Counted from the first letter of the stretch, positions 45,577-60,122 are shown. The stretch is DNA of 64,000 nucleotides from Vicinamibacteria bacterium (GCA_964291235.2 OZ219816.1:1024001-1088000); one strand, 5' to 3'. Notes: generated by a model not told the origin, from the sequence alone. Numbers and translations: made by a program.

Positions 45577-48204
45577 ATGCTTCGAGTTACCGTTTTTGCT
45601 TTGCTGGCCCTGGGGCTGGGTCTGCCGTCCGGGTTGGCTCAGGCGCAGGTGCGGGCGCCGGCCGAGGTTCTCGGTTTCGAGCCCGGCGACGACTACCAAC
45701 TGGCGCTTTGGGGGGAGCTGACCCCCTTCTACGAGCAGCTCGCCGCAGCCAGCGATCGAGTGGAGATCCGCCAGATTGGGGAGACGGTCCTCGGGAAGCC
45801 GCTCCTGGTCCTGTTCATCTCCTCACCGGAGAACCTCGCCGAACTGGATCGCCACCGGGCGAACGCGCGGGCGCTCGCCCATGCGGAGATTCCGGAAGAC
45901 GAGGCGGTGCGTCTTTCCCGCGAGGGGAAAGCGGTCGTCTGGATCGATGCCGGATTGCACGCCACCGAGGTGGCGCCGGCGCAGATGATGCCGCTCCTCG
46001 CCCACCGGGTCGCCACCGAGGAATCCGAGGAGATGCAGAAGATCCGGGACGAGGTGATCCTGATCCTGATGCCGTGCATGAATCCGGACGGCCTGGACAT
46101 CGTGGCGTCGTGGTACCGCCGGAACCTCGAGACTCCCTTCGAAACCACCCGCCCGCCCGAGCTCTACCACCACTACGTCGGCCACGACAACAACCGCGAC
46201 TGGTTCATGAACAACATGCCGGAGACAGCGGCGGTCAGCCGGGTGCTGTACCACGAGTGGTTCCCGCAGATCGTTTACAACCACCATCAGACGGGTCCCG
46301 CGTGGGCGCGGATTTTTCTGCCGCCATTCGCGGACCCGGTGAATCCCAAGATTCACCCGGGAGTCACCACGTCGGTGAACCTCATCGGGTCGGCGATGGC
46401 AAACCGTTTCGCGATGAAGAAGATGCCGGGAGCGGTCTCGGACATGATCTACTCGATGTGGTGGAACGGGGGCATGCGTACAGCCCCGTACTTCCACAAC
46501 ATGATCGGGCTCCTTACCGAGACCTCGCATGCCTCGGCGAGCCCCCGGATGTACGACCCCGAGGACCGTCCCGAGTTCGTGGGGAATCCGCGCCGCGGAC
46601 AGGCGGCGCCGACGAACGGCACGGATGTCTTCTATCCGTATCCGTGGCCGGGCGGGGAGTCGCGGTTCTCCGATCCGATCCGCTACACGCTGACCGCCTC
46701 GATGGCTGTCCTCGACGTCGCGGCGGATCTCCGCGAGAAGTGGCTCTTCGACATCTGGCGGATGGGGCGGGACGCGATCGAGGGGAGTGATGCCAGCTGG
46801 ATCGTGCCGGCCGAGCAGTGGGATGCGGGCGAGGCGGCAGCACTCGTGAATGTGCTTCACGAGGGAGGCATCGTGATTGAGCGCGCGGACGAGGCGTTCG
46901 AAATCGACGGCGAAACCTACGGTGAAGGCACCTACGTCGTTCGCGGAGAGCAGGCATTTCGCGCCTATGCCGACGATCTGCTGGAGCCGCAGGAGTACCC
47001 CGATCGGCGGCGCACGCCGGACGGGCCGCCCGACCCTCCCTACGACCTCGCGGGCTGGACGCTGCCGATGCAGATGGGGGTGCGGGTAGATCGCGTCGCC
47101 GAGCTGCCCGAGTTCGCGTCCACGAGGGTTGACGGCCCGGTCCACTCCCCGGCCGGTGAGGTCTCCGGAGGGGGGTCGTTCGGCTACGCGATCTCGCATC
47201 GGCCGAACGCGGCGGTCATCGCCCAGAACCGGTTGCTCGCGGCGGGCGCGGAGGTCGCCTGGGCGGCGGAAGGATTCCGTGACGGGGGAACCGACTACCC
47301 CGCGGGGACGCTGGTGGTCCGGAAGTCGGATCCCGCCGACGCCGCGATGGAGGGAATCGCCTCGGAACTGGGCCTGGACGTCGCCGGGCTTGCCGGCGCC
47401 CCGAACGTGGAACTCTTGCCGCTCGAGCCGGTGCGCGTCGGACTCTACAAGTCCTACGTGGCGAGCATGGACGAGGGTTGGACCCGCTGGCTGCTCGAGA
47501 ACTACGAATACGACCTCACGAGCCTGTCCGACGACGACATCCGCACGGGGGACCTCTCGCGGTTCGACGTGATCGTCCTGCCGCACCAATCCGCGGACGC
47601 CATCCTGCAAGGACACGCTCCCGGCACCATGCCGGAGGAATTCACCGGCGGAATTGGTCTCGAGGGGTCTCTCGCGCTCAGCCGTTTCGTCGAGGAGGGC
47701 GGCACGCTCGTGACCCTCGACGGCGCGAGCGACTTCGCGATCGCCCAGTTCGGACTGCCGCTCCGCAACGTTACGGCCGGGCTTGCCGACCGCCGTTTCT
47801 TCATCCCGGGGTCGCTGATCCGGGCCCAGGTGGACACCTCGCACCCGCTGGCGTTCGGGATGCAGGACGAGGTGGCGACCCAGTTCGTCCGCAGCCGCGC
47901 GTTCGACACGGTGAGCATTCCACGGACGCGGGAGGGTGGCCAGGAAACCACCGAGGAGCCGGCCCCCGCCAACGTCGAGGCCATCGCCCGCTATGCCGAG
48001 GAGGAGATTCTGATGAGCGGTTGGGCGCTCGGGGAGGAGGATGCGATCGGCGGCAAGATCGCCATGGCCAGGGTGCCGATGGGGGCGGGCGAGGTCGTGC
48101 TCTTCGGCTTCCGTCCCCAATTCCGGGGCCAGCCCCGCGGAACCTACAAGCTGTTCCTGAACGCGCTGAACGGCGCCACGGTGGAGGATCTCGGGGCCCG
48201 GTAG
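45577..48204 (+). CDS. Exported M14 zinc carboxypeptidase-like protein (paralog of 35949-38543)
   Basis: LHATE, MNPDG, YVGHDNNRD, NHHQ, MDEGWTRW, GTYKLFLNAL. Confidence 0.9.
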   Translation: MLRVTVFALLALGLGLPSGLAQAQVRAPAEVLGFEPGDDYQLALWGELTPFYEQLAAASDRVEIRQIGETVLGKPLLVLFISSPENLAELDRHRANARALAHAEIPEDEAVRLSREGKAVVWIDAGLHATEVAPAQMMPLLAHRVATEESEEMQKIRDEVILILMPCMNPDGLDIVASWYRRNLETPFETTRPPELYHHYVGHDNNRDWFMNNMPETAAVSRVLYHEWFPQIVYNHHQTGPAWARIFLPPFADPVNPKIHPGVTTSVNLIGSAMANRFAMKKMPGAVSDMIYSMWWNGGMRTAPYFHNMIGLLTETSHASASPRMYDPEDRPEFVGNPRRGQAAPTNGTDVFYPYPWPGGESRFSDPIRYTLTASMAVLDVAADLREKWLFDIWRMGRDAIEGSDASWIVPAEQWDAGEAAALVNVLHEGGIVIERADEAFEIDGETYGEGTYVVRGEQAFRAYADDLLEPQEYPDRRRTPDGPPDPPYDLAGWTLPMQMGVRVDRVAELPEFASTRVDGPVHSPAGEVSGGGSFGYAISHRPNAAVIAQNRLLAAGAEVAWAAEGFRDGGTDYPAGTLVVRKSDPADAAMEGIASELGLDVAGLAGAPNVELLPLEPVRVGLYKSYVASMDEGWTRWLLENYEYDLTSLSDDDIRTGDLSRFDVIVLPHQSADAILQGHAPGTMPEEFTGGIGLEGSLALSRFVEEGGTLVTLDGASDFAIAQFGLPLRNVTAGLADRRFFIPGSLIRAQVDTSHPLAFGMQDEVATQFVRSRAFDTVSIPRTREGGQETTEEPAPANVEAIARYAEEEILMSGWALGEEDAIGGKIAMARVPMGAGEVVLFGFRPQFRGQPRGTYKLFLNALNGATVEDLGAR

Positions 48205-48225
48205 GCGAGGCCCGTCTCGTACGGC

Positions 48226-48231
48226 TAGAAT
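48226..48231 (+). promoter_or_regulatory. Putative -10 element TAGAAT upstream of rpmB
   Basis: GGCTAGAATCCGCGC; identical context upstream of the gene at 24403. Confidence 0.55.
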
Positions 48232-48242
48232 CCGCGCCTCTC

Positions 48243-48509
48243 ATGGCCAGAACCTGCAAGCTGACCGGAAAGCGCCCCCTCACCGGGAACGCGATCAGCC
48301 ACGCTCACAACAAGACGAAGCGGCGCCAGCTTCCCAACCTGCAGTGGAAATCCGTTTGGGTTCCCGAGTTGGAGCGGTCCGTCCGCCTGCGCCTCAGCGC
48401 CCGCGCCCTCCGCACCATCGACAAGAAGGGTCTGCTCAGCTTCCTCAAGGACGAGGGCCTGCGCCTCCGGGACGTCCTCCCGGCCCGCGCTCACGCCCGC
48501 AACCTGTAG
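48243..48509 (+). CDS. rpmB: 50S ribosomal protein L28
   Basis: MARTCKLTGKRPLTGNAISHAHNKTKRRQLPNLQ...LRTIDKKG. Confidence 0.97.
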   Translation: MARTCKLTGKRPLTGNAISHAHNKTKRRQLPNLQWKSVWVPELERSVRLRLSARALRTIDKKGLLSFLKDEGLRLRDVLPARAHARNL

Positions 48510-48632
48510 GGCAGGGGCCGGCCGCGGCCGCTCCCCCTGGTAACGGCCTTCGACCGGCATCGCGGCCGGCAGCGCCGCCAAACACGCGGCGCCAGTCCGC
48601 CGAGGCTGACAAGCCCCGGATCCGTGTCCGCG

Positions 48633-49043
48633 TCACGCGGGAAGAAAACCCTGCTCCCTGAAGTGCCCGTCGTACGTGAACGCGTGCCGGATCCGGCGGT
48701 CGCGCATCACCTCGAAGGAGAGCCAGTCCACGAGCGACACCTGGCGCCGGCCGGCGGCGAACATGGCCGCAGCGGCGCGGCGGTGCAGCTTCTCGTCGAT
48801 CCAGACGACCTCGGCGACCGGCAGCAACCCCTCGTGGAGTTCTCGGACCGCCTGCATGCCCAGTCGCCGGGCGATGAGCGCGGTCGCTTCCATGATGATC
48901 GCATGATGCGTGAGCAAGGGTTGCTGGCCGCTGCGAGTGCTGGCGAGCAGCCGATCCCAGGTCCGTTTTGCGTGGTCATGAAACCGCTGTTCAGCGTCGA
49001 GCAGGGTGTAGAGCGCCGAGGTGTCGACGAAAACGGGCGGCAT
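48633..49043 (-). CDS. VapC-like PIN-domain toxin
   Basis: VFVDTSALY, IIMEA, SLVDWLSFEVM, AFTYDGHF..GF. Confidence 0.9.
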   Translation of the reverse strand: MPPVFVDTSALYTLLDAEQRFHDHAKRTWDRLLASTRSGQQPLLTHHAIIMEATALIARRLGMQAVRELHEGLLPVAEVVWIDEKLHRRAAAAMFAAGRRQVSLVDWLSFEVMRDRRIRHAFTYDGHFREQGFLPA

Positions 49044-49507
49044 CACTCGGGTAAGCGCCACCTTGCCATCTCCTCCTCCAGGATCTCCACGTAAGCCTCG
49101 TCGTGGTTCTCGGCGAGGTCGCGGCGCCCGGAGCGGAACGCTCCGACGGGTCGTCGGGCCCGTTCGATCAGTTCGTCCAGCGCGCTGCCGCCGCGGAAGG
49201 CGTCGAGCGCCTGGTGGAGCAGGCTGTCCGGCAACAGGCCGAGTTCTCCCGCCAGCCGGTGCAGTCGCTCGGTCGCGTTCTCGGTGAGACTTCCGGGAGC
49301 GTCCGAGCCGTACGGCTGGGTTCCCTCCTCCACACTGGCAGCGCCCGGTTCCGCGGGCGTTTCCGGGTGGCGCGGAGCGACAACCGGAACCAGGCGGGCG
49401 ACGGGACGGCCCCACTTGGTGATGGTTACCGGAGTGCGGGTGGCGGCGACCTCGTCCAGGATCCGGAGGCAGGTGTCCTTGAATTTGCCGGCGGAAATGG
49501 AACGCAT
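49043..49507 (-). CDS. Antitoxin with N-terminal Phd/YefM domain and C-terminal RHH/CopG-like region
   Basis: ISAGKFKDTCLRILDEV..PVTITKWGRPVARLVP; then LTENATERLHRLA...LLHQALD and FRSGRRDLAENHDE; TGATG overlap with the toxin. Confidence 0.8.
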   Translation of the reverse strand: MRSISAGKFKDTCLRILDEVAATRTPVTITKWGRPVARLVPVVAPRHPETPAEPGAASVEEGTQPYGSDAPGSLTENATERLHRLAGELGLLPDSLLHQALDAFRGGSALDELIERARRPVGAFRSGRRDLAENHDEAYVEILEEEMARWRLPE

Positions 49508-49619
49508 CCAAGAAATATAGCCATAGCCAGATTCCGCTGCAAACCCCGACGACCTCCGGGGACCGTGGGTCCGGCGTCGCCGGTGGTTCCGTAGAATCGG
49601 CGCCCCGAGAGGAACATCC

Positions 49620-52211
49620 ATGCACCTGCGTCCCAGCCTCGTCCTCGTCCTGTTGGCCACCCCGCTCTTCGCCGGGCCCCAGCGCTGGCCGCCGCCGCCC
49701 ATCATCCAGGGAGTGGCGGAGGCGTATCCGCCCGCCCGTCACGGTGGGAACTACATGCACAACTACTACTTCCCGCCGGCCCCGAGCAGCACTCCGTGGG
49801 CGCCGGCCTGGTCACCGGACGGGAAATCGATCGCGGTGGCGATGTCGGGCTCGATCTGGCGGGTGGACCCCGAAACCGGGATCGCTGACGAGCTGACCTC
49901 CGGGCCCGGCTACCACTCGCTACCCACCTGGTCGCCGGACGGGAGGTTCATCGTTTTCACGGTGGACCGGAACGGCCAGAACATCGGTCTTGCGCTCGTG
50001 GATCTGACGACGGGGGAGAGCCGGATGCTGACGGACGACGACTTCCTCTACATGGACCCGGCCTTCTCCCCGGACGGGAACCGGCTCGCCTACGTCTCCA
50101 CGAAGCCGTCGGGCTACTTCAATGTCTATGTCCGCGAGTTCGAGAACGGGGAGCTCGGGTCGGAAGAGATCGCCCTCACCCGGGACGAGAACTACGGGAA
50201 AGAGCGGCTCTACTTCGGCTCCTGGGACATGCACATCACCCCGGCCTGGATGCCGGACTCCCGGGAACTCCTGATGGTTTCGAACCACGAGGTGCCGCTC
50301 GGCTCGGGGAACGTGGTCCGGACTCCGATGGCGGTGGACGGCTTCGAGGAGGGGGTCGCCGTCCTCGCCGAACAATCCCTGTACCGGACCCGTCCGGACG
50401 TCTCGATCGACGGGAAGCGGTTCATCTATTCCTCGACGGCGGGCGCGGCGGATCAGTTCTCGAACCTCTACGTGCAGCCGACCGACGGCGGATCCCCCTA
50501 CAAGCTGACCTTTTTCGAGCACGACGCCTTCCACCCCCGCTGGTCCCCGGACGGCGAGTGGATCGCCTACATCGACAATTCCGGCGGACTGCCGCAGCTC
50601 GCTCTCCTGGAAACCTACGGGGGGAAGCGCCGCGTTCTCGAGATCACCCGGCGTAACTGGAGCCGGCCCATGGGGGTGCTCTCGGTGCGCACGGTGGACG
50701 CCGCGACGGATGAGGAGGTTGCCGCCCGCATCCACCTTGAGGCTGCCGACGGGCGTTTCTACGCGCCGCCGGATGCCTACGCCCGGATCGGCGGCGCGGC
50801 GGAACACTCGTTCCACCAGGCGGGGAGTTTCCGGATGGAGGTTCCCGTCGGTGCGCTCGAGATCGAGGCGGTGCGGGGCTTCGAGTACGAGCCGATGAGT
50901 GTACGGGTGGAAATCACGGCCGGTGATGTCACCGAGTTGACCCTCCGCCTCCCGCGGATCACGGACATGGCAGCGAAGGGGTGGTGGAGCGGTTCCACCC
51001 ACGTCCACATGAACTACGCCGGAAATCTCCACAACACGCTCGAAAACCTGATGTTCATGTCGGACGCCGAGGATCAGGACGTGGTGCTGGAGCAGGTCGC
51101 CAACAAGGACAACCGCATTCTCGACTACCAGCACTTCCTTCCCGGCGGGGGCGCGCATCCGCTCTCCACGGCGGACCGGGTGCTGGTGGTGGGCCAGGAA
51201 TACCGGCCGCCCTTCTACGGCCACGTCTTCTACTTCGGCCTTGAAGAGCACCTGATCTCGCCCTACACCACCGGCTACGAGGGCACGGGAATCGAGAGTC
51301 TTTATCCGTCGAACACCGACATGTTCCGAAAGGCGAAGGCTCAGGGTGCGACGGTGGGTTACGTGCACGCCTTCTTCGGAGAAAACGATCCGCTGGTCGG
51401 CCCGGAGGGAAGTCCTGGCAGCCTCGGTGGCGCGAAGGGATACATGGTGGATGCGGCCCTCGGCACCACGGACGCGGTGGAGTGGTCCTCGGCGTCGCGG
51501 GCGGGGTTCTTCCCGTGGTACGCCACCATGAACAACGGTCTCCGGGTCACTGCCGTCGGCGGCGAGGACTCCATCAGCAACATGCAGCGGTCCAAGCTGG
51601 TCGGTTCGGTGCGCACCTACGTGCACACCGGAGAGCGCGGGCTGGATCTGGACGCCTTCCTCGAAGGCATCCGGGAGGGCAGGGCATTCGTGAGTTGCGG
51701 GCCGGTGCTCGATTTCCGGGTCAATGGACGGATACCGGGGGACGAGGTACAGCTCCCGGAGTCTGGAGGCGAGGTGGAGTGGAGCGCCTGGGTTCGCTCC
51801 TCGACCCCGCTCGAGCGGGCGTGGATCGTTTCCGGCGGCGAGGACGTAGCCGAGGTGGCGCTCTCCGAGGATCGGCGTTCGGCCCGCGCGACCGGTCGCG
51901 TCGCGATGGAGCGGAGCGGCTGGATGATTCTCCGGGCGGAGGGAGCGCCGGAGGCAGCCCGCCCGCTGGACTGCGGCTACGCCCAGGCGTTCACGAATCC
52001 GGTCTGGGTCATGGCCGGCGACCAGCCGGTCCGCAGCGCCGCTGCCGCCGACTACTCGATTCGCTGGATCGACCGGCTCCGTGAGATGGCGGAAGCGTGG
52101 GAATACTGGCGGTCGGATGCCGAAAAGGCCCACGTGTATGCCCAGTTCGACGAGGCTCGGGCGGTCTACGAGGGGTTTCTCGTTGAGGCGCGCGCCCTGG
52201 GCCGAGAATGA
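49620..52211 (+). CDS. Exported protein: TolB-like PD40 repeats plus CehA/McbA (PHP-like) metallohydrolase domain
   Basis: PAWSPDG, PTWSPDG, PAFSPDG, PRWSPDG; WWSGSTHVH, GQEYR, GHV, YVH, GGED, AFTNPVW. Confidence 0.85.
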   Translation: MHLRPSLVLVLLATPLFAGPQRWPPPPIIQGVAEAYPPARHGGNYMHNYYFPPAPSSTPWAPAWSPDGKSIAVAMSGSIWRVDPETGIADELTSGPGYHSLPTWSPDGRFIVFTVDRNGQNIGLALVDLTTGESRMLTDDDFLYMDPAFSPDGNRLAYVSTKPSGYFNVYVREFENGELGSEEIALTRDENYGKERLYFGSWDMHITPAWMPDSRELLMVSNHEVPLGSGNVVRTPMAVDGFEEGVAVLAEQSLYRTRPDVSIDGKRFIYSSTAGAADQFSNLYVQPTDGGSPYKLTFFEHDAFHPRWSPDGEWIAYIDNSGGLPQLALLETYGGKRRVLEITRRNWSRPMGVLSVRTVDAATDEEVAARIHLEAADGRFYAPPDAYARIGGAAEHSFHQAGSFRMEVPVGALEIEAVRGFEYEPMSVRVEITAGDVTELTLRLPRITDMAAKGWWSGSTHVHMNYAGNLHNTLENLMFMSDAEDQDVVLEQVANKDNRILDYQHFLPGGGAHPLSTADRVLVVGQEYRPPFYGHVFYFGLEEHLISPYTTGYEGTGIESLYPSNTDMFRKAKAQGATVGYVHAFFGENDPLVGPEGSPGSLGGAKGYMVDAALGTTDAVEWSSASRAGFFPWYATMNNGLRVTAVGGEDSISNMQRSKLVGSVRTYVHTGERGLDLDAFLEGIREGRAFVSCGPVLDFRVNGRIPGDEVQLPESGGEVEWSAWVRSSTPLERAWIVSGGEDVAEVALSEDRRSARATGRVAMERSGWMILRAEGAPEAARPLDCGYAQAFTNPVWVMAGDQPVRSAAAADYSIRWIDRLREMAEAWEYWRSDAEKAHVYAQFDEARAVYEGFLVEARALGRE

Positions 52212-52284
52212 GAAACCCGGTGACCAGCGGAATGGGCCGAGCCGCGTGGCCGGGTTCCGGCCGTCTGCCTGATACCCTCGGGCC

Positions 52285-52626
52285 ATGAGCCTGATGGGAC
52301 GGGCCCTCGGGACGAAGGCCCCGTTCGTTCCGCCGAATCAGATCGACGATGTGCTGCGCGACGACGAGGTACTTCTGCTGGATGTGCGGACCGCCGTGGA
52401 GCTGGCCGAATCGGGGACCATCCCGGGGGCGCTCCACATCCATCTCGGAGAACTCGCCGACCGGCTCGACGAGTTGCCCCGCGGCCAGCCGGTGCTGACC
52501 ACCTGAATGGTGGGCCCCCGGGCTGCGCGTGCCGCGGCCATTCTGGAGAAGGCAGGTTTCGAAGTCGTGGGTTATTGCGGCCTCAAGCAATACGCGGGCG
52601 CCCGGGAGTACCGCCCGCTCAACTGA
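52285..52626 (+). CDS. Selenocysteine-containing rhodanese-domain protein (113 aa, Sec74)
   Basis: LLDVRT..E...GTIPGALHI; in-frame TGA 52504-52506 gives U-MVGPR-AARAAAILEKAGFEVVGYCGL at the catalytic CxxGxR loop; SECIS-like hairpin follows. Confidence 0.85.
52521..52539 (+). promoter_or_regulatory. Putative bacterial SECIS hairpin
   Basis: GGCTGCG-CGTGC-CGCGGCC; loop starts 22 nt after the TGA with G at loop position 2. Confidence 0.7.
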
Positions 52627-52647
52627 TTCCCAATAGGAGGGTCCACG

Positions 52648-53100
52648 ATGAAGAGGACTTTTTCCCTCGCCGCGGCTGCCCTGACGGCGCTCGGTTGGGG
52701 CTGTGGCGGAGGCGAGCCGGCGGCTGAAATGCCCGCGGCCACCGAAGAGGCCACGCCGGAGCCGACGCCGGAGCCGACGCCGGAGCCAGCGCCGCGAGTC
52801 GAGGCCGAGGACATTGACGCCGCTCTCGCGAACGGCGCCGTTCTCCTCGATGTGCGCACCGATGAAGAACTCGCCGAGCACGGCACCATCGAGGGCTTCG
52901 TCCACATTCCGATCGATGAACTGGAGGCGAGGATCGGCGAACTCCCGGTGGGAGTTCCCATCCTCACCGCTTGACAGGGTGGCGGAAGAGCCGCGCGTGC
53001 CGCGGAGCTACTACAGGCGAACGGACACGAAGTCGTTGGTTTTTGTGGCCTGATGGGCTATGAAGGCGAGCGGGTCTATCCCGGGGCAGCGGAAGACTGA
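52648..53100 (+). CDS. Selenocysteine-containing rhodanese-domain lipoprotein (150 aa, Sec109)
   Basis: AGGAGG SD; signal peptide ending LGWG-C; EPTP linker; LLDVRT..E..HGTIEG; TGA 52972-52974 gives U-QGGGR-AARAAELLQANGHEVVGFCGL. Confidence 0.85.
52989..53009 (+). promoter_or_regulatory. Putative bacterial SECIS hairpin
   Basis: CCGCG-CGTGC-CGCGG core; same loop and same spacing from the TGA as in the first rhodanese. Confidence 0.7.
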
Positions 53101-53104
53101 TTCG

Positions 53105-54403
53105 TCAGATCTGAACCGTCCGGAAGCCCGCCAACACGTCGCGGCGATCCGGACTGAAGAAATTTCGATAGCGGCCGGTCAGCAGCCGGCCGCGCGTCGC
53201 CCAGGCGCCGCCGCGCAGCACCTTGGTCTCGTGGAAACCGGCTTCGGAGTATTCCCGGTAGGCATCGGGACGGAAACCGGGGAACGGCCTGAAGGTGTCC
53301 CCGGTCCACTCCCAGACATTGCCAATCATCTGCCGGCAGCCGAAGGCGCTGTCCCCTTCGGGCAGCGCTCCCACGTCGAGGCAGCCCAGCGCCCAACCGT
53401 CCAGGTTCGCCCGCCGAGGGTCGGGAGGCGTTTCTCCCCATGGGTACGACCGCTTCTTCGGGGCGAGGGCGTCCCCGGCGGGTTCGCCGAGGGCGGCCGT
53501 TTCCCACTCGGCTTCCGAAGGGAGCCGCCGGCCGGCCCAGGCACAGTAGGCATTTGCCTCGAACCAGTTCACGTGGATGACGGGTTCGTCGGGCGCCAGC
53601 GGGCGGACCCGGTCGAAACGGCGTACCCGGAACCCGCCTTCCCGGTCGGGGCGCCAATAGACAGGATGCGCGGCGTCGGCTCGTTCCCGCCAATTCCAGC
53701 CCGCCCGGCTCCAGAACTCACGCTCGCGGTAGCCTCCGGCTGTCACGAATTCGGCGAACTCCGCGTTCGTGACCGGGGCTTTCGCGATCGCAAACGACTG
53801 GACGCGGAACGGATGCGCCCACTTCTCGTTGTCGTAGAGGAACGGTGCGTCCGGCTCAGCCCCCAGCCGAAACGTCCCGCCGGGAACGCGGGCGTCCCCC
53901 GGATGGCGGCCGCCCGGCGCTCGCCGGGGGCGCTCCCGTCCCAGAGCCGGGGCCGGGTAGCCGAGGGTCTGCCGGGAGTAGATGTACGCCTCGGTGTGCA
54001 TGTCCTCGTGGAAGGTGGCGAACTGGTACATGAAGCTGTCGCTCTCGGTCGCGAGGTTCTGATCCAACCGGTCGAGGCAGCGGCACTTGACCCTTTCGGC
54101 GTAGCCGATCACTTCCTCCATGCCGAGGAGAGGGAGGTCCCAGCGCAGTTCCTGGGCAACGGTCGCCGAGTCATAGATTTCGTCCCCCCTGGGCAGGATC
54201 GCTTCGCACCCGTGGAGTTCGCGCAGGATGAACCTCTCGTAGAACCACGCGACGTGCCCGATTTCCCAGCGCAGCGGGTTGACGATGCGCAGCCGCGACC
54301 CCATCCACTGGTCCTCGTCGAGCCCGACAATCAGTGCGAGACTGCGCCGGTGGGCATCTTCCATGATGGCGGCCAGGTGGTCGGCCGGGACACGCTTGGT
54401 CAT
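53105..54403 (-). CDS. senA: Selenoneine synthase (EgtB-like, DinB plus FGE-sulfatase domains)
   Basis: NPLRWEIGHVAWF, FHEDMHTEA metal motif, RRLPSEAEWE, GNVWEW, YRNFF..RRDVLAGFRT; adjacent to senB. Confidence 0.85.
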   Translation of the reverse strand: MTKRVPADHLAAIMEDAHRRSLALIVGLDEDQWMGSRLRIVNPLRWEIGHVAWFYERFILRELHGCEAILPRGDEIYDSATVAQELRWDLPLLGMEEVIGYAERVKCRCLDRLDQNLATESDSFMYQFATFHEDMHTEAYIYSRQTLGYPAPALGRERPRRAPGGRHPGDARVPGGTFRLGAEPDAPFLYDNEKWAHPFRVQSFAIAKAPVTNAEFAEFVTAGGYREREFWSRAGWNWRERADAAHPVYWRPDREGGFRVRRFDRVRPLAPDEPVIHVNWFEANAYCAWAGRRLPSEAEWETAALGEPAGDALAPKKRSYPWGETPPDPRRANLDGWALGCLDVGALPEGDSAFGCRQMIGNVWEWTGDTFRPFPGFRPDAYREYSEAGFHETKVLRGGAWATRGRLLTGRYRNFFSPDRRDVLAGFRTVQI

Positions 54404-54423
54404 GGTGGGAGCAGGCTTCGCCC

Positions 54424-55377
54424 GTGCGAATCATTGTAGTAACCCCCGCCGGAGCCAACTCGCGCGCCGGAAACCGGATCACCGCGGTCCGCTGGGCGCG
54501 GATGCTGCGGTCGCTGGGGCACCGAGTCGCCGTCCGGACGGAATGGGACGGCGGGAGCGCGGATGTGCTGATCGCGCTCCACGCCTGGCGGAGCGCTGCT
54601 TCCGTTGCCCGCTACCGATCCCGTTGCCCGAACGGTTCCCTGGTGGTCGCGTTGACCGGCACCGATGTGCACGGCTTTCTCGGCACCCATGAAGAGACGA
54701 CCCGGAGGTCGCTTGAACACGCGGACGTGCTGGTGGCGCTGCACGATCTGGTGTCCGATGCCATCCCACCGGAGTTTCGCAACAAGGTCCAGGTGGTGCA
54801 TCAGTCGGTGAAGAACCGCGGTATATCGCGCGATCCGTCGAGACGCACGTTTGACGTGTGCGTCGTCGGACACCTGCGCCGGGAAAAGGATCCGCTGCGG
54901 GCGGCGTACGCGGCGCGAGCGATCCCGGCGGCGTCCCGGTTGCGCGTTTTGCACGCCGGTGGAGCTCGGGATCCGGATTGGGGGGTCGCTGCGCAGGAGG
55001 AGATGGCGCGAAACCCGCGTTACCGCTGGCGCGGTGAACTTCCGGGGTGGCGCGTGCGCCGGCTCTACGCGAAAGCCCGGGCGATGGTGATCTCTTCGGT
55101 CGTGGAGGGGGGCGCCAATGTGGTGTCCGAGGCGGTGGTGGCCGGACTCCCGGTCATTGCGTCGCGCATCCCGGGGAACGTCGGCCTTCTCGGCCCCGGA
55201 CACCCGGGCTATTTCCCCCCGCAGGATACCGGGGCTCTCCGCGATCTCCTGTGGTGCGCGGAGAGTGATCCCGGTTTCCTCGAGGACCTCATGCGGCACG
55301 GGGCGGCGCGAGCGCCGCTGTTCGCCCCCGAGCGTGAACGCGAGGCCTGGCGCCGGCTACTCGCGGCGCTCTCGTAG
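54424..55377 (+). CDS. senB: Selenosugar synthase (TIGR04348-type glycosyltransferase)
   Basis: IVVTPA....AGNRITAVRWA, IALHAWRS, LTGTD, VVGHLRREKDP, EGGANVVSEA, IPGNVGLLG..HPGYF. Confidence 0.9.
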   Translation: MRIIVVTPAGANSRAGNRITAVRWARMLRSLGHRVAVRTEWDGGSADVLIALHAWRSAASVARYRSRCPNGSLVVALTGTDVHGFLGTHEETTRRSLEHADVLVALHDLVSDAIPPEFRNKVQVVHQSVKNRGISRDPSRRTFDVCVVGHLRREKDPLRAAYAARAIPAASRLRVLHAGGARDPDWGVAAQEEMARNPRYRWRGELPGWRVRRLYAKARAMVISSVVEGGANVVSEAVVAGLPVIASRIPGNVGLLGPGHPGYFPPQDTGALRDLLWCAESDPGFLEDLMRHGAARAPLFAPEREREAWRRLLAALS

Positions 55378-55388
55378 TTCCGCCCCGA

Positions 55389-56858
55389 TCAGTTGATGAG
55401 GAATATCTTCTCGTTCGGCGGCTGTAGCCATTCGACGCCCTTGTTGGTCACGATTTGCGGGTTCGAGATGTTGATCGCGAGTGGGAAGCCCGGACGCTCC
55501 GGGATGTTCATATGCACCATGTACTCGTACGCGAAGATGTGATTCTCCTGGATCACCAGGTGGTGCCGGTCGGCGCGGAAATTCGTCACCGAGGGACCGA
55601 CGGTTCCGGTTCCGACGGTGCCGTGGGCGTGGTGGTCGATGGCGAAACCCGGCTGGTCGCTGTCGCCGAGCCCTTCCTGGATGATCACGTAGTCGAGGTT
55701 CCTGGCGCCGTCGGGGGTTCGGCCGATCCCCTGGATTCCGGAGTTGACGAACGGCGTGTAGATGTAGCCCGCCTCTTCCATGGCTGCGACCATGGCGTCG
55801 AGCGATTCCTTCGCCGTCATGCCCACCCGCATGTGGGGCCGCATGATCCACTGGCCGGCGATCGCGAAGTCGAAGAGTTTCTGGATGCTCTCCGGAGGGG
55901 CGGTTTCACCCTCGCGCAGAATGTAGGCGTGGGTTTTGGTGTCGGTCCCGAATCCCATGTAGTTGACCCCGACGTTGAAGGCGAAGAAGTCGCCGCGTTG
56001 GAAGACGTAGTCCTCGTGCCAGATCCAGTAGCGGGCGTCGGGCGGGTAGGGTGGGTCCTCGGATACCGCGGTGTAGTAGAGGCGGATGCCACCGCGTCCC
56101 CCGGTGCTGAAACCGGCCAGGTGCCGCTCATAGGCCCACTCCCGGGCCCAGGTGGTGATCTCCCGGATCGTGGTGCGTCCCGGCTCGATCCGGGCCAGGG
56201 CCTCCTGGGTGAGCTGCCGGGCGGCCTCGAGATTGTTGATCTGTTCGGCCACTTCCCGGACCGTTCGCCGCACCAGGAAGTCGGTGATCACGTTCTCGGC
56301 GGACACGATCCGCTCGGCATACCTGGGGCCGAGAATCCCGGTGAGCTTCAGGTAGGAGGTGTGGGATAGCCCGTCGGCCTCGGCGAGCCACTCGGAGGTG
56401 TTGACCGCAATGGTCTGCGGGTCCCGTTCGGCGACGAACTCCGTGAACTCGTCGTACACCTCGTCGCCATAGTTGAACGCCATCTGGTAGCCGCGGCCGT
56501 AACTGGAAATGGTCCTCGCGAAGGTGTCCGATCCGCGGACATCGATGTCCGGGACCGCGCCCGCACTACCGAAGGCGGCCCGCTCGATCCGGTCGCCGAG
56601 GTCGGTGAAGACGAGGTAGCCGTAGGTGTTGCCGAACCAGTAGGCCATCGGGTCGGGGTCGCCGTGCCGGGTGACGTGGATCCACATGTCCACGCCGTTG
56701 TCGCGCATGGCTCCCGGCAGGATGAGGTCGAGTTTCTCCCGCCTCATGAGGCGCATTACCTCGCCCCCACTGCTTGAGGTGTGGACGCCAGGTTGGGCGC
56801 CCGCGAGCGTGCCCGCAAGGAGCAGTGAAATCAGGATGGACGGGGTACGGACGGACAT
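55389..56858 (-). CDS. Exported M24-family (Xaa-Pro peptidase-like) protein
   Basis: Signal peptide; LPGAMRDNGVDMWI, QRGD, GTDTKTHAYILREGE, HHAHG. Confidence 0.75.
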   Translation of the reverse strand: MSVRTPSILISLLLAGTLAGAQPGVHTSSSGGEVMRLMRREKLDLILPGAMRDNGVDMWIHVTRHGDPDPMAYWFGNTYGYLVFTDLGDRIERAAFGSAGAVPDIDVRGSDTFARTISSYGRGYQMAFNYGDEVYDEFTEFVAERDPQTIAVNTSEWLAEADGLSHTSYLKLTGILGPRYAERIVSAENVITDFLVRRTVREVAEQINNLEAARQLTQEALARIEPGRTTIREITTWAREWAYERHLAGFSTGGRGGIRLYYTAVSEDPPYPPDARYWIWHEDYVFQRGDFFAFNVGVNYMGFGTDTKTHAYILREGETAPPESIQKLFDFAIAGQWIMRPHMRVGMTAKESLDAMVAAMEEAGYIYTPFVNSGIQGIGRTPDGARNLDYVIIQEGLGDSDQPGFAIDHHAHGTVGTGTVGPSVTNFRADRHHLVIQENHIFAYEYMVHMNIPERPGFPLAINISNPQIVTNKGVEWLQPPNEKIFLIN

Positions 56859-56996
56859 AGGGGCCTCCTGCCCGGTCAGGGTATGGGAGGAACCCTCAGG
56901 TCCGCCAATTGCGGAACGGCAGAACGCCGTGTGCGGCGCGAAGCGAGGCGACGCCGACCGGAGGCCGGCGCCCGTGTGCTCGGTGTTCTCGCGTCG

Positions 56997-58172
56997 CTAC
57001 GCCGCCATCTTCTGGGCGGAGTCGAGGACGGTCGCGATCTTGGTGGCGGCGCGCTGCATCTCGTCCATCGTGCCGATGGAGATGCGGCACCGGGTCCACA
57101 GCGGCGGGAACGGCCGTCCGACGCGCACGCCCTCGGCGGCGCAGGCCGCCTGGAACTGCTCGATCGGCATTCCGACGTCCGCGAAGATGAAGTTCGTCTG
57201 GGCGTCGGTGGCGGTCAGGCCCCGGTCGGCGAAGAACTTGATGATGAAGTCCCGCGCCTCGGCGTTTCGCTTCTTCTCGTTCGGGAGGTAGTTGGGGTCC
57301 GCCTTGTCCCGCTCGAGGGCCGCGTTTGCGGCGACCAGCGCCGGGGTACTCACCGAGTTGCCCATGTGGAACTCACCGAGTTCCTCGATGGTTTCCTCGT
57401 GGGCGATCGCATAGCCGACCCGCAGACCCGCCATCCCGTAGGCCTTCGAGAAGGTGCGCGCCACGATAAGCCGTGGGTTTTCGATGGCCGTCGGGATCAT
57501 CGTCTCGTGGCCCGGAGTGGTCACGTAGTCGATATAGGCCTCGTCCACCAGGATGCGGAGGTTCTTCTCCACGTCGAGCGCCCGCATCAGGAAGTCCTTG
57601 CTCTGGGCAGGATCCACGAGCGTCGCAACCGGGTTGTTCGGATTGCAGAAGAACAGCATGCCGCTTCCCTTGCAGGCGTGGAGCGTCTGGTCCAGATCCA
57701 TCTTGAACTCTGAGTCCAGCGGCACCGCCTTCGTCCGGTAGCCCAACAGGTTTGCATAACCGAAGCACTCTTCGTAGGTCGGCAGCGACCCGACGAGCGC
57801 CTTTTCCTTGCTCGCGTACTGGTGCGTGCAGTCCACCAGGATCTGGGTGGAACCCGCGCCGATGAGGACGTTCTGCGGCTCGACGCCCCACTTCTCGGCA
57901 ATCGCCTCCTGCAGCGGACCCATGAACCGGAACGGATACCGCCCGGCGATCACCCCTTCGGGGCCAATGACCGAGTCGAGAGCGTCCATGACGGCTTCGC
58001 CGGGACCGAGCGAGTTCTCGTTGTTCGCGAGGTTGATTGCCTCTTCGGGAGCGATACCCATCTGGGCGGCGAAGGCGAGCTGCTCGCGGAGGCGCGTGCG
58101 CACCAGGGTCGCGGCGTAGATGCCGGCGGCGCCGGCGGAGGCATGACTCAGGAAACTGCGGCGGGAGAGCAT
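56997..58172 (-). CDS. HisC-like class I/II PLP aminotransferase with Tat signal
   Basis: SRRSFL; NENSLGP, CNPNNP, DEAY, RTFSKAYGMAGLRVGY, RISIGT. Confidence 0.9.
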   Translation of the reverse strand: MLSRRSFLSHASAGAAGIYAATLVRTRLREQLAFAAQMGIAPEEAINLANNENSLGPGEAVMDALDSVIGPEGVIAGRYPFRFMGPLQEAIAEKWGVEPQNVLIGAGSTQILVDCTHQYASKEKALVGSLPTYEECFGYANLLGYRTKAVPLDSEFKMDLDQTLHACKGSGMLFFCNPNNPVATLVDPAQSKDFLMRALDVEKNLRILVDEAYIDYVTTPGHETMIPTAIENPRLIVARTFSKAYGMAGLRVGYAIAHEETIEELGEFHMGNSVSTPALVAANAALERDKADPNYLPNEKKRNAEARDFIIKFFADRGLTATDAQTNFIFADVGMPIEQFQAACAAEGVRVGRPFPPLWTRCRISIGTMDEMQRAATKIATVLDSAQKMAA

Positions 58173-58250
58173 GGGGTGGCTACCTCCTCGTAGCGAGGGT
58201 TCTCGGCTGGTTCGTCAGGACATCCTGCGGGACGTTTCTCCCTCGGGTGG

Positions 58251-59444
58251 TCACTGTTGCTGGTTGTCGGTGGTGGCGAGCCCGAGCACTTCCGCGAATA
58301 CCGCGGTTGCGCGCTGCATCTCCTCGAGGGTGCCGATCGAGATGCGGGCGTGTGACTTTTCGTAGGGGGGGAAATCCCGTCCCACCATGATGCCCTGCTT
58401 CGCGCAGGCCTCACGGAACTCCTTGGCCGACCGTCCGATGTCCACGAAGAGGAAGTTCGTGTGGCTCGGCACCGGATCGAGCCCGTTGCTCGAGAAGAAG
58501 TCGAAGGTGAACTGGCGCGCGGCATCGTTCCGCTTGATTTCATTCTTGATGTAGTCCGGATCCTCAAGCGACGCCATGGCGGCGGCGATCGAGAGAACGG
58601 AGGTTCCGAACGTGAGCTGCAGCGGCGCGAGTTTCGCGATGGTGTCGGCCTGGCCGTAGGCGTAGCCGACCCGCAGCCCCGCCATGCCGTAGGCCTTCGA
58701 GAAGGTGCGGCCCACGAACACGTCGCGGTACTCCATCGCGAGTTCGGCGCCGGTGTCGAAACCCGGATGCGCGACATAGTCGTAATAGGCCTCGTCAAGA
58801 AGAATCGCGGTATAGGGAGATTCCTTCTTCACGAACTTCACGAAGTCCGTGATGTCGGCCAGCGAATGGACGGTGCCGGTGGGGTTGTTCGGGTTGCAGA
58901 GAAATACGAGTCCAGCGCCGATGGAGGCGCCGGCCATTTTCTCGAGGTCGAGCCCGAGGTCCCCCATCATCGGGATGGATTTGACGGACGCACCGAAGTA
59001 CTTCGCGGTCCGCACCGGGTTCTCGTAGGAGCACTCGCCGGTGACGAGAGGCCGGTCCGGCCCGGTGTAGATGCGGACCGCGTTGCGCAGGATCTCCGAG
59101 GAACCCGGTGCGAGAACCACGTGTTCGGCTTTGCCGCCGTACATTTCGCCGATCCGCTGCCGGAGATCGGTGCCGCTCACCTGCGCGTTCATCGGGTAGC
59201 GCATGATCGAGCCGTAGGCGCCGCGAAGTCCGGCCACCGCGGCCGGACCAGGACCGAGTGGGTTTTCGTTGCTGCTGATCCGGACCTCGTCGGCCTCGGG
59301 TGGCGGCACGAAAACCGGGGCTCCCCGAAAGCCGTTCTCGGCTTCCCAGGCCTCGCGGCCCCTGGCGCTGATCGCGTGGAGCGAAGCCGCACTTCCGGCT
59401 CCGCCGGACGCGAGACTGAGGAAACTGCGACGGTTCGTCTTCAT
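58251..59444 (-). CDS. HisC-like class I/II PLP aminotransferase with Tat-like signal (paralog)
   Basis: NRRSFL; SSNENPLGP, CNPNNPTG, DEAY, RTFSKAYGMAGLRVGY. Confidence 0.9.
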   Translation of the reverse strand: MKTNRRSFLSLASGGAGSAASLHAISARGREAWEAENGFRGAPVFVPPPEADEVRISSNENPLGPGPAAVAGLRGAYGSIMRYPMNAQVSGTDLRQRIGEMYGGKAEHVVLAPGSSEILRNAVRIYTGPDRPLVTGECSYENPVRTAKYFGASVKSIPMMGDLGLDLEKMAGASIGAGLVFLCNPNNPTGTVHSLADITDFVKFVKKESPYTAILLDEAYYDYVAHPGFDTGAELAMEYRDVFVGRTFSKAYGMAGLRVGYAYGQADTIAKLAPLQLTFGTSVLSIAAAMASLEDPDYIKNEIKRNDAARQFTFDFFSSNGLDPVPSHTNFLFVDIGRSAKEFREACAKQGIMVGRDFPPYEKSHARISIGTLEEMQRATAVFAEVLGLATTDNQQQ

Positions 59445-59606
59445 AGGGTCTCTCCCTGATCGATTCTTGGCTCGGTGGTCACGAGCGTCGGGACAACGTT
59501 GGGCACGTTCCTAATTTGTCTGCCCTCTCATGATCTTGGATAGCGGAGAGTATCCGCTGCGGCGAATACGCCGCAACCCTCCCGGAGGTTCCGAGGCGGG
59601 GATCGG

Positions 59607-60122
59607 TCAGTGCACCATGAGGTCGGTGACGAGAGCAGTTTCACCCCACTGCATCTTGAGGGTGCCGTTCATGCCGTCCGCCATCAACGAGATCGTGAAC
59701 ATCTCGGCGGAGCTGCCCGCCTCTTCGATCTTGAGCGGCGCGCTGAACAGGTCCTTTCCGGGGTCGTGGGCGAGCCCCGACTGGCCGGTCTCGCTGTTGA
59801 CCAGCAGGTCCCAGCCGTCGTCCGTCTTCTTCGCGAAGAGGGTGTAGGCGCCGGCCGGCACCATCTCGCTGCCGATCATCAAATCGCCCTCGGTGGTGAT
59901 GGTGGTGGCGTTTTCGGATCCGAGACGCCACACCATTCCGGCAGTCGCCTGGCCGAGCATGTCGCGCCCATTGAGGCTCGGCCTGCCGTATTCCACGGTG
60001 ACCGCCTTGCCGTTGAAGCTGGCTTCGGCCTTGCCACGCGGGTTGTGCGCAAGCGCTATTGCCGCGACCGCCATACAAACGGCGAAAACGGCCACCAACC
60101 GGTGCTTGGGGGAGTAGGTCAT
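59607..60122 (-). CDS. DUF2911 domain exported protein
   Basis: Signal peptide; VEYGRPSLNGR, VWRLGSENAT, VPAGAYTLF, EMFTI, WG. Confidence 0.85.
   Translation of the reverse strand: MTYSPKHRLVAVFAVCMAVAAIALAHNPRGKAEASFNGKAVTVEYGRPSLNGRDMLGQATAGMVWRLGSENATTITTEGDLMIGSEMVPAGAYTLFAKKTDDGWDLLVNSETGQSGLAHDPGKDLFSAPLKIEEAGSSAEMFTISLMADGMNGTLKMQWGETALVTDLMVH

Follow-up and report, generated by a model that had tools for sequence, protein, structure and literature searches.

Do two selenium-dependent traits that lie side by side on a chromosome form one system? The question is raised by a locus of a Vicinamibacteria bacterium (GCA_964291235.2; G000 in our tallies, 3.45 Mb in 2 contigs, 90% complete), where two tandem rhodanese genes, here called Rhd1 and Rhd2, each interrupted by an in-frame TGA, adjoin the selenoneine genes senA and senB. 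The four genes occupy positions 52285-55377 of the window, by which we mean the whole 64,000-nt stretch that was analysed (G000:C2:1024001-1088000). An earlier note, made from the sequence alone, had suggested that they may be an extended selenoneine system in which rhodanese selenoproteins capture, reduce or relay selenium. Comparison with related genomes points to another answer: an old tandem pair of selenocysteine (Sec)-containing rhodaneses and a senA-senB module probably just adjoin here, their juxtaposition being the local arrangement of one genus and not a conserved functional unit.

The open reading frame (ORF) of Rhd1 extends from 52285 to 52506, where it is halted by a TGA (52504-52506), and the frame remains open onward to a second TGA at 52626-52628. 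Similarly, the ORF of Rhd2 (52648-52974) is halted by the TGA at 52972-52974, with an open frame up to the TGA at 53100-53102. When the first TGA is read through, the plus strand encodes a single-domain rhodanese of 113 residues with Sec (U) at residue 74 (Rhd1, 52285..52628) and a rhodanese of 150 residues with Sec at residue 109 (Rhd2, 52648..53102). The Pfam Rhodanese domain PF00581 spans the TGA in both products (E-values of 8.6e-12 for Rhd1 and 1e-10 for Rhd2). Judging by the read-through translations and by orthologues, the recoded residues (U74 and U109) occupy the catalytic position. Each opens a six-residue active-site loop, U-x-x-G-x-R, within the motifs LTT-U-MVGPR-AARAA (Rhd1) and LTA-U-QGGGR-AARAA (Rhd2). 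A second conserved cysteine, in G-F-C-G-L, follows 23-24 residues past Sec in these rhodaneses.

A six-frame search of 61 genomes (G000 and 60 relatives) showed that G000 and 26 of the other 27 members of its GTDB family carry the two genes, with exactly one in-frame TGA per gene; the family genome without a match to the pair, G007, is 89% complete. Copies with one TGA, single or multiple, are also present in many genomes of the order's two other families. The residues downstream of the TGA are conserved, and the open frame is kept at the protein level across family and order. A scan of all prokaryotes, with one genome per species, returned 335 stretches encoding a relative, the best 80 of which were analysed: among these, the aligned site is TGA in 30 and cysteine in 50. 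The Sec forms in this set all belong to Acidobacteriota-type records, while the Cys forms come from Planctomycetota, Firmicutes, Bacteroidota, Actinomycetota and others. The family profile was further matched (E up to 1e-18) by 39 genomes in an evenly drawn sample of 401 Acidobacteriota; 35 of them, including G000, have the TGA, and among the matches listed 38 of 42 carry one TGA. Genomes flagged as unpublished are included in these tallies (G036 in the 61-genome searches; G107, G209 and G083 in the phylum sample), and no conclusion hinges on any one of them.

The genome encodes the machinery needed to decode UGA as Sec: selA (498.1 bits against a cut-off of 267.9), selB (285.7 bits, or 311.1 counting its in-frame neighbours; cut-off 242.25), tRNA-Sec (69.7 bits, cut-off 47) and one selD (249.5 bits, cut-off 125) were all found above cut-off. 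Of the other 34 genomes in the phylum sample with a Sec-rhodanese, 33 likewise have SelD, the exception being one that is 55% complete. On these comparative grounds, i.e. the conserved TGA, the Cys homologues, the Sec machinery and the conserved hairpin described below, it is very probable that Rhd1 and Rhd2 are selenoproteins. Public annotation treats the TGAs as real stops, which would make the genes truncated relics or half-domains of 73 and 108 residues, and public protein collections indeed hold N-terminal fragments only (71 of 79 hits are 70-77 aa long, named 'hypothetical' or 'rhodanese-like domain-containing'). Yet a frame that stays open past the TGA, with protein-level conservation across family and order, a TGA placed exactly at the catalytic Cys column, a conserved hairpin and a complete Sec machinery make true termination very improbable.

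SelD was found in 303 of the 401 sampled Acidobacteriota, and most of the matches listed carry one in-frame TGA. Judging by these matches, selenium use and a Sec-containing SelD are the rule in the phylum.

We aligned the 50 nt counted from each UGA in 61 genes (47 distinct sequences) and found a near-invariant block, GCCGCGCGUGCCGCGG, which can fold into a hairpin with a stem formed by columns 18-24/30-36 and the loop CGUGC. The stem begins 17 nt past the U of UGA and overlaps the codons of the conserved A-A-R-A-A. In Rhd1, the candidate selenocysteine insertion sequence (SECIS) lies at 52521..52539 on the plus strand, with a 7-bp stem (52521-52527/52533-52539) and the loop CGUGC at 52528-52532. 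In Rhd2 it lies at 52987..53009 on the same strand, where a 5-bp core (52991-52995/53001-53005) closes the loop CGUGC and two outer pairs extend beyond the core stem, across a G.A/A.G internal loop. Bacterial SECIS elements usually stand 16-37 nt from the UGA and carry G/U in the apical loop.

Across the 47 distinct sequences, 85.7% of the cells of this structure are paired, and at three positions both partners of a pair have changed: 21:33 (C-G in 43 sequences, U-G in 3, U-A in 1), 24:30 (G-C in 46, A-U in 1) and 18:36 (G-C in 8, C-G in 5, A-U in 2). The covariation score was matched by none of 500 shuffles and exceeded all slid controls. Synonymous variation is also reduced in the hairpin. 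In Rhd1, third-position entropy was 0.60 bits in 6 hairpin codons vs 1.14 in 48 other conserved degenerate codons (24 distinct orthologues); in Rhd2 it was 0.00 bits in 5 hairpin codons vs 0.79 in 41 others (13 distinct orthologues). These counts cover ungapped tblastn hits from 25 loci, at an identity of at least 65% for Rhd1 and at least 75% for Rhd2.

Thermodynamics, on the other side, is unremarkable. Local fold energies were -12.4 kcal/mol for the Rhd1 hairpin and -10.4 kcal/mol for that of Rhd2, no better than shuffled GC-rich sequence (29-nt segments, z -0.8), and the Rhd1 hairpin is not contained in the 60-nt minimum-energy fold after its UGA. Taken over the 60-nt folds and the 29-nt segments, the z-scores (+1.8, -1.5, -0.8 and -0.8) give no thermodynamic support by themselves. 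An Rfam scan of 51500-56000 with E up to 10 gave three chance-level matches and no SECIS family. Since folding energies are not better than shuffled, the SECIS assignment rests on conservation, by which the hairpin fits a bacterial SECIS that would aid UGA decoding.

The two rhodaneses would act in different compartments. By eye, Rhd1 lacks an N-terminal signal. Rhd2 begins with MKRTFSLAAAALTALGWG-C, read by eye as MKR, a hydrophobic stretch and G-W-G-C, and continues into a Pro/Glu/Thr-rich linker. As the hydrophobic leader ending in Cys is kept among Rhd2 orthologues (S-A-S-G-C, L-F-A-C, L-V-A-C), Rhd2 is probably a lipoprotein, again judged by eye. So far, then, the earlier note proved a good guide: the tandem rhodanese ORFs with a TGA at each catalytic position are supported by read-through products with PF00581 matches, one of the pair appears to be exported and the other cytoplasmic, and the Sec machinery that it suggested looking for is there.

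The Pro-Glu-Pro-Thr repeat of the Rhd2 linker (52747-52793) varies in length between strains: contigs from two RNA libraries carry a 12-nt deletion, and a DNA run contains repeat-slippage joints. In both RNA libraries there is a single 208-nt contig (52627-52846) with the 12-nt deletion, as well as a 33-nt piece, and neither library is informative on transcription in this strain. Their identical figures suggest that the two are probably duplicate entries of one data set. DNA runs containing the stretch may stem from the source sample.

The neighbours of the pair are senA and senB. On the minus strand, 53105..54403 encodes the 432-aa selenoneine synthase SenA, an EgtB-like non-haem iron enzyme, and 54424..55377 on the plus strand encodes SenB, a 317-aa selenosugar synthase of the TIGR04348 glycosyltransferase type. 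SenA reaches 475.2 bits on NCBIfam model NF041186 (cut-off 420) and only 316.6 on the EgtB model TIGR03440 (cut-off 360), while the scores of the genome's true EgtB are reversed (456.7 bits on EgtB, cut-off 360, and only 312.4 on the SenA model). SenB scores 399.1 bits on TIGR04348 (cut-off 300), its residues 3-314 covering model positions 1-309. Thus, both proteins pass curated NCBIfam cut-offs and are genuine SenA and SenB, as had been proposed, and a grouping of SenA with sulfur-type EgtB, which the earlier note had named as a possible refutation, is not what the models return.

SenA and SenB are ordinary members of the characterised selenoneine pathway, where SenC supplies selenophosphate, SenB forms a selenosugar and SenA joins the latter to hercynine (bioRxiv 10.1101/2022.04.13.486033). 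Compared with the senA-senB-senC cluster of Variovorax paradoxus described there, the SenA and SenB studied here pass the equivalog models and egtD is located at another site of the genome, which is the case for most sen organisms; the differences are that senA and senB are divergent, that senC is not found beside them and that the only SelD is a fusion protein near selA. EgtD (329.1 bits, cut-off 290.9) is encoded directly after EgtB at C2:210-212 kb, so hercynine is available. None of the genome's four SelD-family matches (C1:1307759, C2:2034722, C2:1427446 and C1:1267772) falls within the window. The only SelD of the genome, encoded on contig 1 at about 1306.5-1308.8 kb (L001:220-2556), 6 kb from selA, is a 778-aa fusion protein (Cys form) whose other part is a pyridine-nucleotide-disulfide oxidoreductase of type TIGR03169 (386 bits against a cut-off of 310). 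On our reading, senA-senB is a two-gene selenoneine module, for which selenophosphate must come from the oxidoreductase-SelD fusion on the other contig and hercynine from the egtD product.

An unusual SenB was encountered in one acidobacterial genus, where codon 4 is an in-frame TGA (M-R-I-TGA-I-V-T-P) in both G066 (L144:6263-5340) and G189 (L145:1975-2919). Sec finds no support at this codon, since 15 other SenB proteins and that of the window have R, H, L, G, V, A or I there, but never Cys. The TGA may reflect a later start or something else.

We next asked whether the rhodaneses and senA-senB are linked. At the locus itself, senA is convergent on Rhd2, with stop codons (53105-53107 and 53100-53102) 2 nt apart, and senB is divergent from senA, with 20 nt separating the start codons. 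Both orientations are as the earlier note had them; its stop-to-stop distance of 4 nt is corrected to 2 nt, a trivial difference. The convergent orientation rules out a common transcript for senA and the rhodanese genes. A promoter and terminator scan of 49300-57000 gave counts no higher than expected from shuffled sequence and nothing usable on operon structure. The composition profile of 48000-60000 does not distinguish senA-senB from its surroundings, and hence there is no sign of recent import.

Among 20 loci returned by the six-frame search, SenA adjoins the rhodanese pair, convergent on Rhd2, in 15 of 15 loci of one genus (g1), which comprises Ca. Marinacidobacterium-like Vicinamibacteria, a good number of them from sponges; none of the five loci of the family's other genera has SenA in its 1.5-kb flanks. 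SenA was found above cut-off in 34 of the 61 genomes: 15 of 16 in g1, none of 12 in the sister genera g2-g7, and 19 in other families. All 12 genomes of g2-g7 have nevertheless kept the rhodanese pair. In the 10 other-family genomes with both traits, rhodanese and SenA are found on separate contigs or with 300 kb or more between them. Of the 61 genomes, 25 have both, 17 the rhodanese only, 9 SenA only and 10 neither. At the level of Sec-form loci, SenA and SenB occur together within 5-kb flanks in 11 of 30, all 11 being of the g1 type, with at least 78% identity to Rhd1.

The same picture emerged from the SenB side. SenB is encoded by 32 of the 401 sampled Acidobacteriota, and 30 of the 31 other SenB genomes were tested for a nearby rhodanese (the unpublished G107 was left out). 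None of the 30 had a Rhodanese-domain match within 50 kb of SenB among the matches listed (150 of 178), the nearest being 55 kb away. SenB and a Sec-rhodanese were adjacent in none of the 8 other phylum-sample genomes that have both. Elsewhere, neighbours of the rhodaneses vary: two Tat-signal HisC-like aminotransferases, M14, M28 and M24 peptidases, beta-lactamase-family, amidohydrolase and ankyrin proteins were found, and in the large genomes of the sister families integrases, resolvases and transposases. Selenium genes were absent among the rhodanese neighbours at these loci.

Three observations weigh against a mere juxtaposition. The adjacency is perfectly kept within g1; the convergent junction is very tight; and SenB occurs in 9 of 35 Sec-rhodanese genomes vs 23 of 366 others, above the expectation for independence. 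A functional coupling specific to this genus may exist. The Sec-rhodaneses could then be accessory parts of selenoneine synthesis, with the lipoprotein capturing selenium outside the cytoplasm and the cytoplasmic protein relaying perselenide to SelD or SenB, in replacement of the missing senC-linked supply. Rhodanese can carry selenium in vitro, and the lack of senC beside senA-senB in a genome with a single SelD would leave room for such a role; the adjacency in g1 and the SenB enrichment also speak for it. So does the enrichment of the TIGR03169 oxidoreductase type, the fusion partner of SelD in G000, among Sec-rhodanese genomes of the phylum sample (24 of 35, compared with 42 of the remaining 366). 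However, the genes are convergent, the pair exists without any SenA in the sister genera and the two traits are unlinked wherever both occur outside g1, while both enrichments are confounded by a shared need for selenium and by genome relatedness. We consider such an accessory role unlikely. The extended selenoneine system suggested by the earlier note is thus not upheld, and the neighbourhood comparison that it had called for found the adjacency confined to g1. A selenium relay by the Sec-rhodaneses may exist, but gains no support from gene neighbourhood.

A further possibility is that the pair partners other conserved neighbours in the chemistry of envelope sulfur or of amino acids. Two candidates flank the locus. 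The first are paralogous HisC/PtaA-like pyridoxal phosphate (PLP) aminotransferases at 56997-58172 (-) and 58251-59444 (-), each with a leader of twin-arginine type (..RRSFL..). In g1, g3 and g4 they are no more than about 4 kb away from the Sec-rhodanese pair, and in two genomes (G017 and G022) they stand directly upstream of it on the same strand. The second is a gene at 49620-52211 (+), 73 nt upstream of Rhd1 and on the same strand, for a secreted-looking 863-aa protein with TolB-type beta-propeller repeats and a CehA/McbA-family metallohydrolase domain, about 90% identical across the genus. It is found upstream of the pair in 14 of 15 g1 loci, and the fifteenth locus begins at a contig end. 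But neither neighbour stands beside the pair in g5, g6 or other families, and synteny at the family level suffices to explain the pattern. A partnership of this kind has, in our estimate, a slim chance of being right, and two adjoining but separate traits remain our preferred explanation.

On its other side, senB faces a convergent gene at 55389-56858 (-), across an 11-nt gap, for a 489-aa M24-peptidase-like protein with a signal-like leader. This protein is 91-95% identical across the genus, far above SenA and SenB (74-81%), and a homologue with 30% identity lies 3 kb from a Sec-rhodanese in G042.

What, then, might the rhodaneses do? Their best solved relatives (E from 8.4e-19 to 4.5e-10; depositors' names) are the rhodanese domains of CoA-disulfide reductase 3icr (E 8.4e-19), 3nta and 3ntd (FAD-dependent pyridine nucleotide-disulphide oxidoreductase), CoA-persulfide reductase 8a56 and BpPRF 5ve3, in all of which the Sec column aligns with the catalytic Cys. 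In these structures the rhodanese uses Cys and is fused to a flavoprotein or a dioxygenase, whereas Rhd1 and Rhd2 are free-standing and carry Sec. E. coli GlpE (1gmx) and PspE (2jtq) are of the same size class and have the same six-residue active-site loop, but the similarity is distant (E of 3.2e-6 and 1.8e-6, respectively) and they have Cys, not Sec. PspE is located outside the cytoplasm, like Rhd2.

These likenesses fit the scheme that we consider most probable. An old tandem pair of paralogous rhodaneses of GlpE/PspE size would have had its catalytic Cys replaced by Sec, the UGA being decoded through the short downstream hairpin and the genome's selA, selB, tRNA-Sec and selD products. Rhd1 would stay in the cytoplasm and Rhd2 be exported as a lipoprotein. 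By homology, sulfane sulfur is their most likely cargo, bound to Sec as an Se-S(H) adduct, and their chemistry would be a persulfide-type transfer or reduction, like that of the rhodanese domains of CoA-disulfide and CoA-persulfide reductases.

A variant of this scheme in which the rhodaneses carry selenium and not sulfur can be envisaged, as CoA-disulfide and CoA-persulfide reductases belong to the same flavoprotein superfamily as the oxidoreductase fused to SelD. Rhd2 might trap selenium at the envelope and Rhd1 present an Se-Se adduct to the SelD-fused flavoprotein domain; together they would mirror, as separate proteins specific for selenium, the CoA-persulfide/polysulfide reductase-rhodanese fusions. 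We regard this as improbable as it stands.

Sec-rhodaneses as such are not new. They have been catalogued among predicted prokaryotic selenoprotein families, including PF00581 proteins with a UxxG motif (a 2026 review, PMC13188914; a 2022 review, PMC9312934; and the Sargasso Sea selenoproteome, PMC1088965). Rhodanese forms 2 and 4 of that catalogue (PMC13188914), known by prediction only, share with Rhd1 and Rhd2 a single domain, a catalytic Sec and the motif U-x-x-G, a likeness of description and motif that need not mean one subfamily. Beyond the catalogued forms, the tandem of a cytoplasmic and a lipoprotein-type enzyme, the second Cys in G-F-C-G-L and the occurrence in Vicinamibacteria are new here. 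A cluster look-up of public entries returned accessions such as MCY3746880.1 and MDE2881251.1, which are other than the examples given in the reviews. Two other assignments were tried and rejected: NCBIfam NF041203 (form 3, the LYCAU type with CxU) reached 19.9 bits for Rhd1 (cut-off 115) and did not match Rhd2, the motifs of the two being T-U and A-U, and rhoda_near_glyco (NF045521), considered as a known link between rhodaneses and glycosyltransferases, gave 20.1 bits against 145 for Rhd1 and no match in the genome; no paper on a GPMC system was found.

We found no association of rhodaneses with selenoneine in a literature search that covered titles, abstract openings and selected passages; supplements of the sen papers could list clusters of senA-senB alone. 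In the passages retrieved from PMC13188914 and bioRxiv 10.1101/2022.04.13.486033, rhodanese appears only in a selenoprotein table or in connection with SelU. Further searches returned no paper on selenoneine, SenB or SenC that mentions Acidobacteri, and nothing relevant on selenoneine in sponge symbionts. What the locus holds is, in our assessment, mis-annotated new rhodanese members of known families next to a known senA-senB pathway.

Copies of the lipoprotein-type Sec-rhodanese gene in large Marinacidobacterales genomes from two GTDB families share 94-98.6% DNA identity, a likeness limited to about 620-700 bp (L053:7345-7960, L055:7174-7872, L056:7348-8042, L057:7316-7922, L058:6990-7597 and L059:7353-7963). 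These copies lie among repeats of 70-260 nt, beside integrase, resolvase and transposase ORFs, and six of them were found in one genome (G045). The sequence context suggests a small mobile cassette in which a selenoprotein gene would travel with its SECIS.

Several implications follow for selenium biology in these bacteria. As the rhodanese genes are public only as fragments throughout a whole acidobacterial clade, many members of which are sponge-associated metagenome-assembled genomes, its selenoproteomes are under-counted. The locus also cautions against reading a 'selenium locus' off one genome, for two selenium-dependent traits can adjoin without forming a system. How selenium reaches SelD is poorly understood, and the Sec-rhodanese pair, by its co-occurrence with the type of oxidoreductase that is joined to SelD, offers a reasonable though modest lead on this delivery step. 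If true, such a selenium-carrier route would supply selenophosphate for selenocysteine and selenoneine synthesis alike in these sponge-associated Acidobacteria.

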